From NCBI GenBank assembly GCA_048941015.1, contig JBHLNZ010000098.1, positions 1-10,135 on the forward strand: a stretch of 10,135 nucleotides of DNA. The letters are read 5' to 3'. The translations under genes and the position numbers were made by a program. Below are positions 6,993 to 9,900 of this stretch, piece after piece. Position 1 is the first letter of the stretch; each line of letters begins with the position of its first letter. Below the pieces are notes generated by a model. It was not told where the DNA came from, searched no databases, and saw nothing but the letters and a program-made list of their open reading frames with translations. The stretch is from Promethearchaeota archaeon. Lineage in GTDB: Archaea > Asgardarchaeota > Lokiarchaeia > Sigyniarchaeales > SOKP01.

Positions 6993-9900
6993 ATCTGGTA
7001 ATTCTTGAGGTATCTCTGGTAATACTATGACAGTATATTCGTATTCATATCCAGTAACATCATATTTTGTTGTATTCCTCCCTTGTAAATCATATGCGAT
7101 TATATACCAGATTACTGTAGTATTAAATGGTTGTGCTGGAAGTGAAGTTTCGTAAGTCCCTGGGTTACCAGGTTGCTCTGTGAGATATGCATAACCCCAT
7201 GTGCTACCATTATTAGTCGAATATCTTACATACGCTTCTTGAATTCCACCTTCATCAGCAATTTCAACTGTGATAATTGGTTCGTCATTTGGACAGCATC
7301 CAACTCCATCATTATTAGAATCTAAATCGATAGTTGGAAATTCAATTTCTGGTGGAACATAGTCATAAGTATTATGCTCAAGTGGTTGTGAAGTTTCACA
7401 GAAAAAGGGTATAGTCTCAAAAATATATGTGCCAAATTTTTGATCTATACCAACCCATTGAGTAATATTATCTGTAGCTTCATCATCAAATATGTTAAAA
7501 CTAACTTCATAAATGTTAGTTGTTCCTACTTCCGCATAATTTTTAAATCCAAAACTAAGTTCCCATTCTGTTTCTACAATTTCTAGTTCTAGAGCTGTGG
7601 TGCTACTTATTTCGATCGAATGAGAAAAGGTCCTTGTAAAGGTAGTTTCAATTTCAAATGACTCTTCTACAGGGATACCAGAGTCAACTGAAAGTGGTCG
7701 ATCCCAGGTAACATCAGCATACCCATTATGTACTGGATTTTGAGCACGCCATTCTTCGGGTGCATTGATATCTGTCTTAAATACTTCTGCATCTCTAATT
7801 ATGCCATAAAATAAGTGTGGTTCTTCGTAGACAAATTTATCAGTAGCGTTTGAATAAACTCTCTGCTTTGCTTTAAGCTCCCATTTAATTATCCAAGCTT
7901 CGCCCCAGTATACATCTCCATAACCTGGACCTATATAATCGGGATTATCAGAAATTGTATTTGAGCTAAAACTTGAGGATTCTGTTATTTCATACCTAAA
8001 GTCGAATCCAAATTCAGTAGTGTCTTTATAACCTAAGCTGGTCGAAGCGCCTCCACCAATACCAAACAGTTCAAAATCAGCGCCTATTTTTACGTCAATA
8101 CCAAGACTAGTTGAAATTTCAGCTCCAACACCCAGGGAAAAAACCGTTGTTTCAGCAAAACTGGAATAGCTGTGATCTCCATTAGGATCATGCAAAATTA
8201 GGTAAAGCTGATCGCCTATGAGTGTAGAGTTTGACTCAAGTAAACTATCTACTTCTACTAATATTTTAATAAATGTAAAATCACGCGAATCACTTACTAT
8301 TGGAGTAGGATTACTTTCTTCAAAGCCATAAAGAGTACATGTCACATTTCCATTATATTGTTCACCCCATACTAAGGTTGTAGAGTTTTGGCCCATAACG
8401 CTACCCATATCTGTGCCATTTATGTCTAAGGTAACATCATATAACTCAACGTAATCATATGTGAAATTGAAAATAGTTTGGTCTTTCCCAAAGATATAAG
8501 CAGCTCCTTCAGCAGGAGTTAGCCACTCGATATAAGGTTGATCTCTTGGTACTCCAGACACCTCTGTAGAGTTATCACTTTCACCTGCAAGATTTTCAGC
8601 ACGAATTATATAATAATATCTTGTTCCAGCCACAATAGCAGTGTCATTATATTCATTAATGATAGGAGAACCTACTAATGTTTTACTACCATTCTCAACT
8701 AATCCTCTGTAAACATTGTATTGTATAATTGGTACTCCATGATCATTTGGAATATCCCATGTTAGAAAATTATGAAGATATCCTTGATCTATTTGAACGT
8801 TAGAAGGTTCGTCAGGTGTTGAAAGGTATAGTCTTACTTGGTCAACCATAACACGATAATCCGTCCAGGGTTGGATATTGTAAAAATCAATTTGAGCGAA
8901 TCTTACACTTAAAACATCTCCAGCACTGAAAAAGTCATCAGCATCTGTATCAACGATTATTGTATGCATTCCAATCGCACTAATAACTTTCCTTTTTTCC
9001 CATTTACTGCCACTATAGTTATATAAGTAAACATCTAAAGCACCAAAAGTTTCAGCAATATCCATTTTTAAGGAAAATTGATCTATTGTCCCTAAACCAT
9101 ACGATCCGTAATCTAATGCATAATAGAAATCGATATCATATTTATAATAGAAATATTGAATATCAATGGCATCAACATTTAACCATGCTATAGTTAGAAC
9201 AGGCTCCCAGCAATACATCGAAATGGCTAAAGCATTAATACAGGCTCCATTCTTAACATTGTCAAATATAACCCCTGAATCAATATTAATGTAACCAGAA
9301 TAGTATTGACCATTAACTGGAGTTCCAGCAACTATATATGCAGTACTATTACCAGTAGTATCATAATAGGTCAGCGCAAGATTACTTGCCTGATCTAAAA
9401 TATTTGGCCACCACCCAGCTTCAGCCATAACTCTATAATATATGCGAATCAAGTAAATATGGGGATGTATTGCAGCCTCAAAATTATCATAAGAACCCCA
9501 AATTAACCATATCCAATTCGCGGGGACATAATATGTATAATCAGCTTCAAGAAAGAGGTTATAATTATCCGCATTCTTCAAAGCATCATCGATAAGTGAA
9601 GTATCGCCAACCACTCTTGGGAACGCTGTTCCCCATAGTAATCCTCTTCCCCCTAATATACTATTTGCAAATTCTTTGGTAAGAGAAGTACTTGTTCCAA
9701 TCCCAAAATCAGTTGAATCTACATCACCATCGTCATCTTGTATTTTATCTGCACCCCATGGATATCCAGTAGTTTGAGAACCAACAGTTATGGTTTTAGT
9801 AGCAGTATCAAATGTAGGTGCCGATGTCAATGGAGCACTAATCATCTCTTTAGTAAGCTTTGGGTTATTTAATACTTGTAAGTATGATACCAATTTGTTA

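Follow-up and report, generated by a model that had tools for sequence, protein, structure and literature searches.

A conserved surface-protein domain family of Asgard archaea with a predicted resemblance to aerolysin-type pore-forming modules

Introduction

Aerolysin-type pore-forming modules are built around a core of strands b1-b2, an insertion hairpin, strands b3-b4, a variable loop and strand b5; the alternation within the insertion loop is their best-preserved feature, and the modules are fused to varied, frequently lectin-type, domains (Szczesny et al., PMC3110756). Archaeal aerolysin-like genes have been described in Methanosarcinaceae, Methanococcus and Halogeometricum (Szczesny et al. 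2011, PMC3110756). Here we analyse a stretch of 10,135 nucleotides from a Promethearchaeota archaeon of the class Lokiarchaeia (contig JBHLNZ010000098.1 of assembly GCA_048941015.1; the whole stretch is referred to as the window), which carries the gene of a 1033-aa surface protein, P0001 (6894..9995, minus strand, from the open reading frame (ORF) list and translation; all P0001 features below are given as window positions on this strand). A 320-residue part of P0001 belongs to a previously unannotated extracellular domain family, and the first half of this part is predicted to resemble the pore-forming module of the aerolysin family.

In a survey of the Asgard transportome, the pore-forming toxins comprised homologues of hemolysin A and hemolysin III only, with none of the aerolysin type (PMC7997004), and our full-text literature searches returned no paper linking Asgard archaea with aerolysin-type pore formers. 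Cryo-electron tomography of 'Ca. L. ossiferum' revealed cells that are bounded by one membrane, lack an S-layer and bear numerous protruding surface proteins of unidentified nature, and it is via this single membrane with its uncharacterised surface proteins that Lokiarchaeia meet syntrophic partners (PMC9834061). Cell contact and material exchange in Lokiarchaeia bear on models of eukaryogenesis.

A conserved module between variable heads and a C-terminal anchor

The segment aa 571-890 of P0001 (7326..8285), delimited by its homologues, by hidden Markov model (HMM) envelopes and by an AlphaFold2 model, is one copy of a domain family that had not been annotated before. An initial annotation of the window had proposed an undescribed conserved module at this place, and database searches bore this out: no Pfam, NCBIfam or PDB sequence match was obtained over the module with the whole protein, its isolated pieces or the family profiles, and these annotation searches yielded just fn3, a weak DUF7743 and a near-threshold Loki-CTERM match. 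Homologues numbered 106 in a 90%-clustered database, and 139 representatives were recovered from a 50%-clustered one; the family comprises more than 140 proteins, mostly from Asgard archaea with a few from bacteria, and the HMM envelopes place one module copy in each protein. Named members derive from Loki-, Hel-, Hod-, Heimdall-, Thor-, Odin- and Kariarchaeal metagenome-assembled genomes, and the close homologues bear the names Lokiarchaeota or Promethearchaeota. A profile search detected the module in 52 of the 400 Asgard genomes covered; these carry 1-3 copies each and belong to 19 of 85 genera. The source genome (95% complete) contained a single copy and no paralogues. A single-protein scan of the genome contigs gave two loci. 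Within the same order, a full module copy lies in a 2390-aa ORF of a complete single-contig 4.4-Mb genome (G213:C1:2742395-2743342, minus strand), and a partial weak match lies in a complete single-contig 6.0-Mb genome (G315:C1:3848279-3848656, plus strand).

The module had initially been regarded as archaeal, a view that the bacterial members correct. The distant bacterial relatives include a T9SS type A sorting-domain protein, dockerin proteins, and proteins of Chitinivibrionales and Desantisbacteria (L002:5141-5413 and the protein clusters of P0162/P0221, P0147, P0153 and P0148). The T9SS-sorted relative is 1525 aa long with a Por_Secre_tail, and several bacterial relatives align to the first half of the module alone (domain positions 13-140). 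Bacterial proteins with the motifs ILHDPPGD...SSCPWE, similar to those that the initial annotation had mentioned, do exist: P0162 falls in the cluster named T9SS type A sorting-domain protein.

Across the family the module has variable heads on its N-terminal side and an anchor on its C-terminal side. The N-terminal parts include a sialidase-like carbohydrate-binding module (CBM), Laminin_G_3, right-handed beta-helix/NosD, FG-GAP/VCBS, prenyltransferase-like repeats, LVIVD and CarboxypepD_reg, a set that may equally be described as ConA/LamG-like, sialidase-type CBM, beta-helix, VCBS and others. P0003 aligns with P0001 at 53% identity from aa 371 to the C-terminus, whereas its head of ~320 residues is Laminin_G_3-like and unrelated, indicating that heads are exchanged on a constant chassis. 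Such lectin-like variable heads on a constant module agree with the lectin-plus-aerolysin architecture (PMC3110756). At the other end, the module of the closest proteins lies 136-148 residues upstream of a C-terminal transmembrane (TM) anchor, and other proteins have at least one extra domain in between. Furthermore, an Ig-like segment of ~85 aa (aa 483-570) precedes the module in every homologue inspected, including distant and fragmentary ones, and minimal forms such as P0150 consist of a signal peptide, the Ig-like segment and the module. The Ig-like segment may belong to the functional unit, which would then measure ~405 aa instead of 320 aa.

Predicted structure and fold comparison

The whole module was modelled by AlphaFold2 from a 43-sequence alignment with a pLDDT of 83 and a pTM of 0.80. 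Subdomain 1 (aa 571-748; 7752..8285), the part predicted to be aerolysin-like, contains three long strands (aa 578-601, 695-714 and 722-741) with an insertion between the first and the second. These strands occupy domain positions 8-31, 125-144 and 152-171 in the whole-module and subdomain-only models alike, span 20-24 residues each and form, in the models, the elongated twisted sheet of long antiparallel strands that typifies aerolysin-type folds. Residues 40-120, which are inserted after the first strand and hold an amphipathic stretch termed hairpin 1, are the least confident part (pLDDT 56-75). Subdomain 2 (aa 749-890; 7326..7751) is compact, beta-rich and acidic, with strands of 6-11 residues and one short helix at a pLDDT of 85-94. 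Compact beta-sandwiches, which the initial annotation had named as the outcome contrary to its proposal, were rejected for the first half on the basis of its elongated sheet of three long strands and roughly describe the second half of the AlphaFold2 model. An N-x-T glycosylation sequon (aa 716-718; 7842-7850, minus strand) is situated in the loop between two long strands and is kept in the family (consensus Y-S-N-G-T; Y144 and T148 in at least 90% of 14 sequences).

When the subdomain-only model was compared with 48,161 chains, ranks 1-11 were all taken by aerolysin-family pore formers: epsilon toxin (score 4.6; 144 residues aligned, rmsd 5.3), Bombina aerolysin-like protein (4.2), parasporin-2 (4.1), lamprey LIP (3.9), CPE (3.6), LSL (3.6), the lysenin pore (3.5), SaroL-1 (3.2), the aerolysin prepore (3.1), Cry23 (3.1) and a Bacteroides putative pore-forming toxin (3.0), with monalysin, Cry51, Mpp75, Cry78 and Cry35 at lower ranks. 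The alignments cover the entire pore-forming module of each target and are best with the low-confidence insertion kept, so that the insertion belongs to the match; in the models, hairpin 1 occupies the place of the insertion loop in aerolysin/ETX-MTX2-type folds. MACPF matches were far below those of the aerolysin family and covered a smaller share of the model. Foldseek against the PDB gave no match at E <= 1e-3 with either model, and for the whole module it ranked Fabs highest, at a TM of about 0.1; re-examination of its top 1000 candidates led to the same families, LSL being second in Foldseek's own ranking. In an ESM Atlas feature search, the scores of which serve as leads only, all named clusters among the 30 nearest were Aerolysin, ETX_MTX2 or monalysin (scores 0.88-0.90), and residues 177-320 alone again retrieved Aerolysin, ETX_MTX2 and monalysin as named clusters. 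No S-layer or adhesin domain, a match to which the initial annotation had counted as contrary evidence, was matched by the model in the fold searches. The layout predicted from the models resembles that of the aerolysin/ETX-MTX2 pore-forming module, with long strands and hairpin 1 as the insertion loop.

Amphipathic alternation and conserved motifs

Two alternating hairpins without proline had been described in the initial annotation. Translation confirmed the individual residues listed for them, their nucleotide coordinates (hairpin 1, aa 619-676, 7968..8141; hairpin 2, aa 776-835, 7491..7670), the absence of proline from both in P0001, and the positions of ILHDPNGD (aa 600-607), FGTYIF (aa 854-859) and ETSQPLE (aa 867-873). 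Alternation was quantified by a period-2 hydropathy score permitting one phase flip, using windows of equal length across the protein and 500 shuffles per segment. The 58-residue hairpin 1 is the most strongly alternating stretch in the protein (score 1.81; rank 1 of 325 windows; reached by 0 of 500 shuffles), and hairpin 2 ranks 8th of 325 (score 1.59; reached by 1 of 500 shuffles). Across 144 aligned domain copies, 99% of a copy's own shuffles were beaten in 78% of copies for hairpin 1 and in 65% for hairpin 2, compared with 0% of the copies for a control stretch at domain positions 125-180; a loss of alternation in homologues, which would have told against the hairpins, is not what the family displays.

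In the family alignment, hairpin 1 is hydrophobic at odd domain positions 49-73, passes through a conserved L-F-G tip and is then hydrophobic at even positions 76-100, with G/S/T/E/D/K on the opposite face. Insertions and deletions in the 144 copies are restricted to the tip, and 111 of the 144 sequences have no proline in the stretch. Near the tip each arm carries ~5-6 alternating hydrophobic positions (65-73 and 76-86) with G/E/D/K opposite; these are bordered by aromatic residues, beyond which come a Thr-rich zone and then a second hydrophobic zone. Judged from its residues, the region near the tip suits a membrane-spanning hairpin, and aa 619-676 provide the alternating polar/non-polar insertion loop between core strands that is expected of an aerolysin-type module.

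The invariant residues fall outside both hairpins. At the base of the hairpin 1 insertion, it is flanked on its N-terminal side by a D-P-x-G-D motif (aa 603-607; 8175..8189), in which D33, P34 and G36 are invariant in 73 sequences and D37 is present in at least 90%, and on its C-terminal side by a G-P-G-x-G-D motif (aa 689-694; 7914..7931), in which G119 and G123 are invariant and P120, G121 and D124 each occur in 90% of sequences or more. The module closes with conserved acidic and Gly motifs, DD(E)xxD, GID..FGTYIF and TSxPxE (aa 837-873; 7377..7487), where DDxxxD...GID..FGT..F corresponds to aa 837-859 and TSxPxE to aa 868-873; here D267, D272, D281, G285, F289, P301 and E303 are invariant in 43 sequences.

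We tentatively favour, at somewhat less than an even chance, an aerolysin-type module with hairpin 1 as a pre-stem loop hinged at the two Gly/Asp motifs. P0001 may accordingly be a tethered pore former, with a weak fold match. The pore-former analogy of the initial annotation survives in part, since the first half resembles solely aerolysin/ETX-MTX2-type solved folds, in which one hairpin inserts.

Several observations weigh against this reading. Residues 1-178 modelled alone from a 73-sequence alignment gave a poor model (pLDDT 63, pTM 0.53); the drop from 83 to 63 suggests that the two halves probably form one cooperative unit. Only one long strand precedes the insertion within the modelled aa 571-890, compared with two in the aerolysin core (PMC3110756). 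A Pfam scan at E <= 1 gave fn3 only and thus none of the aerolysin-type profiles (PF03318, PF01117, PF18063, PF03505), and profile searches against PDB sequences retrieved nothing; PF03318 also found nothing in 301 Asgard genomes, a result that is uninformative because control genomes were equally silent. The language-model and structure matches may share one cause, namely composition and long Ser/Thr/Gly-rich alternating strands, and are then not fully independent, while alternation on its own fits any sheet with one buried face. Finally, the module is invariably tethered (by a TM anchor, a T9SS CTD or a dockerin), ~140 residues from the anchor, and no stand-alone soluble module was found among the homologues, the short matches P0108 and P0111 being contig-end fragments and P0150 being cut at its C-terminus. 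A position so near the anchor suits a stalk with a structural role, and the membrane closest to the module would be that of the producer itself.

Alternative explanations

In the alternative that survives best, the module would serve the Asgard envelope as a stalk element with a structural or adhesive, non-lytic role, either a rigid, elongated and maybe Ca2+-stabilised spacer that keeps the variable binding heads away from the membrane or a component of a side-by-side surface lattice, in which the aerolysin-like shape and the alternation would merely reflect long strands with one face buried. We regard it as a real possibility, if not a probable one. It accounts for the constant anchor-close position with a single copy per protein, for a context that is always surface display (Loki-CTERM, T9SS CTD or dockerin), and for the numerous invariant Asp and Gly residues, which are typical of structural metal sites; it also accords with Lokiarchaeia having many protruding surface proteins and no S-layer (PMC9834061). 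However, solved stalk, adhesin and S-layer folds outranked the aerolysin family in none of the searches, and a rigid spacer would not usually contain a proline-poor hairpin of 58 residues whose polar face is Gly-rich, whose hydrophobic tip is conserved and which is modelled with the lowest confidence.

Autocatalytic Asp-Pro cleavage occurs in GDPH/vWD modules and in the FrpC self-processing module. The D-P-x-G-D motif raises the analogous idea of a self-processing or shedding device, cleaved at the invariant D603-P604 within HDPxGD, whose halves would stay together through the long sheet up to the point at which the head comes off or becomes cross-linked. The invariance of D33-P34 in 73 sequences is in keeping with such a device; in the model the bond directly follows the first long strand, so that the fragments could remain joined via the sheet, and the membrane-proximal position recalls SEA and GAIN modules. 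We nevertheless consider it improbable, as the motif is HDPxGD and not GDPH, structure and sequence searches gave no match to a vWD, SEA, GAIN or FrpC module, Asp-Pro is equally a common turn, and the conserved amphipathic hairpin would be left unexplained.

Hairpin 2 bears on the second of the two analogies drawn in the initial annotation, that with proteins inserting two hairpins per subunit. In the model it is distributed over four short strands and the helix aa 798-804 within subdomain 2; at the level of the family its alternation is restricted to the inner part (domain positions 222-247), and its first arm (206-221) is Thr/Tyr/His-rich in most homologues. That the module is a pore former with two hairpins, in the manner of MACPF/CDC proteins or gasdermins, and that both stretches refold into membrane hairpins, is very unlikely: although the alternation is kept in 65% of homologues and the short helix midway in the modelled hairpin 2 loosely recalls helical transmembrane hairpin regions, hairpin 2 is modelled inside a compact subdomain at high confidence, its first arm lacks hydrophobic character across the family, the MACPF matches are well under those of the aerolysin family, and a Pfam scan gave no MACPF, CDC or gasdermin match.

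Gene layout and genomic setting

P0001 is ordered as signal peptide, head, FN3, Ig-like domain, the 320-aa module, a second Ig-like domain and the C-terminal anchor. The N-terminal signal/anchor region (aa 1-32; 9900..9995), read from the sequence, has a basic start followed by an 18-residue hydrophobic run, and its hydropathy score of 2.65 is similar to that of most family members. The variable head (aa ~40-390; 8826..9878), of ~350 aa, belongs to no recognised family (Pfam and NCBIfam without match), and close relatives carry unrelated heads in its place. It is followed by a fibronectin type III (FN3) domain (aa 396-480; 8556..8810) that was recognised by PDB Fn3 matches and by PF00041 (cut-off 25), which scored 26.3 bits on the isolated aa 396-570 and 24.2 bits on the whole protein, and by the Ig-like spacer (aa ~483-570; 8286..8549), which was delimited by alignment with P0003 and is also found upstream of the module in P0108, P0111 and P0150. 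Downstream of the module, a membrane-proximal Ig-like domain (aa ~903-996; 7008..7289) gave a weak match to DUF7743 (PF24893; E 8.8e-4, 19.4 bits, below the cut-off of 27). The protein ends in a Loki-CTERM-like sorting signal (aa 1002-1032; 6900..6992) made up of PGY, a TM helix and a tail of basic residues; when the last 45 aa were scanned, the Loki-CTERM model NF033507 scored 18.8 bits (cut-off 19.9) and the Heimdall-CTERM model scored 18.7 bits on the C-terminus (cut-off 24), while the close homologue P0018 bears the name Loki-CTERM sorting domain-containing. Display on FN3/Ig modules with a Loki-CTERM-like anchor downstream, as initially suggested, is supported in this sense, with a score just under the cut-off.

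The gene (G+C 26-37%) neighbours an Asgard ESCRT cluster that encodes Snf7, Vps4, an ESCRT-II Vps25-like and an EAP30/Vps22-like protein, followed by a NIP7-type PUA protein. Twelve of 38 module loci keep the neighbours seen at 2500-6862 of the window beside the surface-protein gene, that is, a ~193-aa NIP7/UPF0113 PUA protein, then EAP30/Vps22-like, ESCRT-II Vps25-like and Vps4; loci named for this synteny are L006, L007, L008, L017-L021, L025, L029 and L031. Module identity between ESCRT-syntenic loci is merely 45-54%. The surface-protein gene converges on the PUA gene, so the two do not form an operon, and the shared gene order may reflect no more than common descent within one family. Neighbour clustering of the 38 loci for conserved partner genes such as a protease or an immunity protein gave only this ESCRT/PUA synteny of one orthologue group. 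Elsewhere in the window (1465-2361, minus strand), a 298-aa ORF has an N-terminal signal-like region, many N-x-S/T sequons and a C-terminal TM helix with a basic tail; it had no Pfam match and, from these sequence features, probably encodes another small surface glycoprotein.

Discussion

If the module acts as an aerolysin-type pore former, a mechanism can be outlined in which the head would bind a ligand on an adjacent surface, several tethered molecules would come together via the module, and hairpin 1 would swing from its hinge, the hairpins combining into a beta-barrel that enters a membrane. We infer homology to aerolysins, as we do oligomerisation, membrane insertion and its target. In its most extended form, the proposal would be that membrane-tethered pore formers of the aerolysin type, with swappable lectin-like heads, are displayed by Asgard archaea and by a few bacteria, and that on contact the modules of neighbouring molecules assemble into a beta-barrel by which the membrane of another cell, be it partner, prey or competitor, is opened; we hold this form to be doubtful. 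If true, it would amount either to a weapon that acts on contact or to a conduit through which syntrophic exchange proceeds. A pore-former-like surface module with swappable heads would be a testable candidate for contact-dependent permeabilisation in the archaeal lineage closest to eukaryotes, and even a purely structural module would define a new domain family, with more than 140 members, for which current databases have no annotation.

In Lokiarchaeia the orthologous gene stays beside the ESCRT-II/III-Vps4 cluster. ESCRT machinery repairs the damage caused by pore formers in eukaryotes. One may speculate that the ESCRT neighbourhood of a pore-former-like gene is not accidental and reflects a link to membrane repair.

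Compared with described systems, the archaeal aerolysin-like genes of Szczesny et al. provide a precedent for aerolysin-type modules in archaea; they are detectable by aerolysin-domain sequence similarity, whereas the present family is undetectable in that way. With the aerolysin/ETX-MTX2 superfamily (epsilon toxin 1uyj, parasporin-2 2ztb, LSL 1w3a, CPE, lysenin, monalysin and aerolysin) the module shares, in its predicted structure, an elongated sheet of very long antiparallel strands and one amphipathic Ser/Thr/Gly-rich hairpin inserted among the core strands, as well as the N-terminal fusion of a variable domain for receptor binding. It differs from that superfamily in having no sequence-profile match and a single long strand ahead of the insertion in the modelled range, in the length of its hairpin (~58 residues), in the module-specific invariant motifs DPxGD, GPGxGD, DDxxxD and TSxPxE, and in an additional compact acidic C-terminal subdomain; moreover, P0001 is anchored to its producer by a C-terminal TM/sorting signal, whereas members of the superfamily are released as soluble protoxins. 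The Bacteroidales secreted antimicrobial proteins (BSAPs) are MACPF-domain proteins that are surface- or vesicle-associated and used against neighbours. Like these, P0001 carries a pore-former-like domain on the producer surface, and bacterial relatives of the module bear T9SS sorting domains, but the BSAPs have a MACPF fold and are unrelated in sequence. The lectin-aerolysin chimeras (LSL, SaroL-1 7qe3/7r55, lamprey LIP 5zu4 and the natterin/Dln1 type) likewise carry a sugar-binding head on a constant module of the aerolysin type; they are soluble proteins of two to three domains, whereas P0001 adds FN3 and Ig spacers together with a membrane anchor, and the exchange of heads takes place here on a chassis that is 53% identical.

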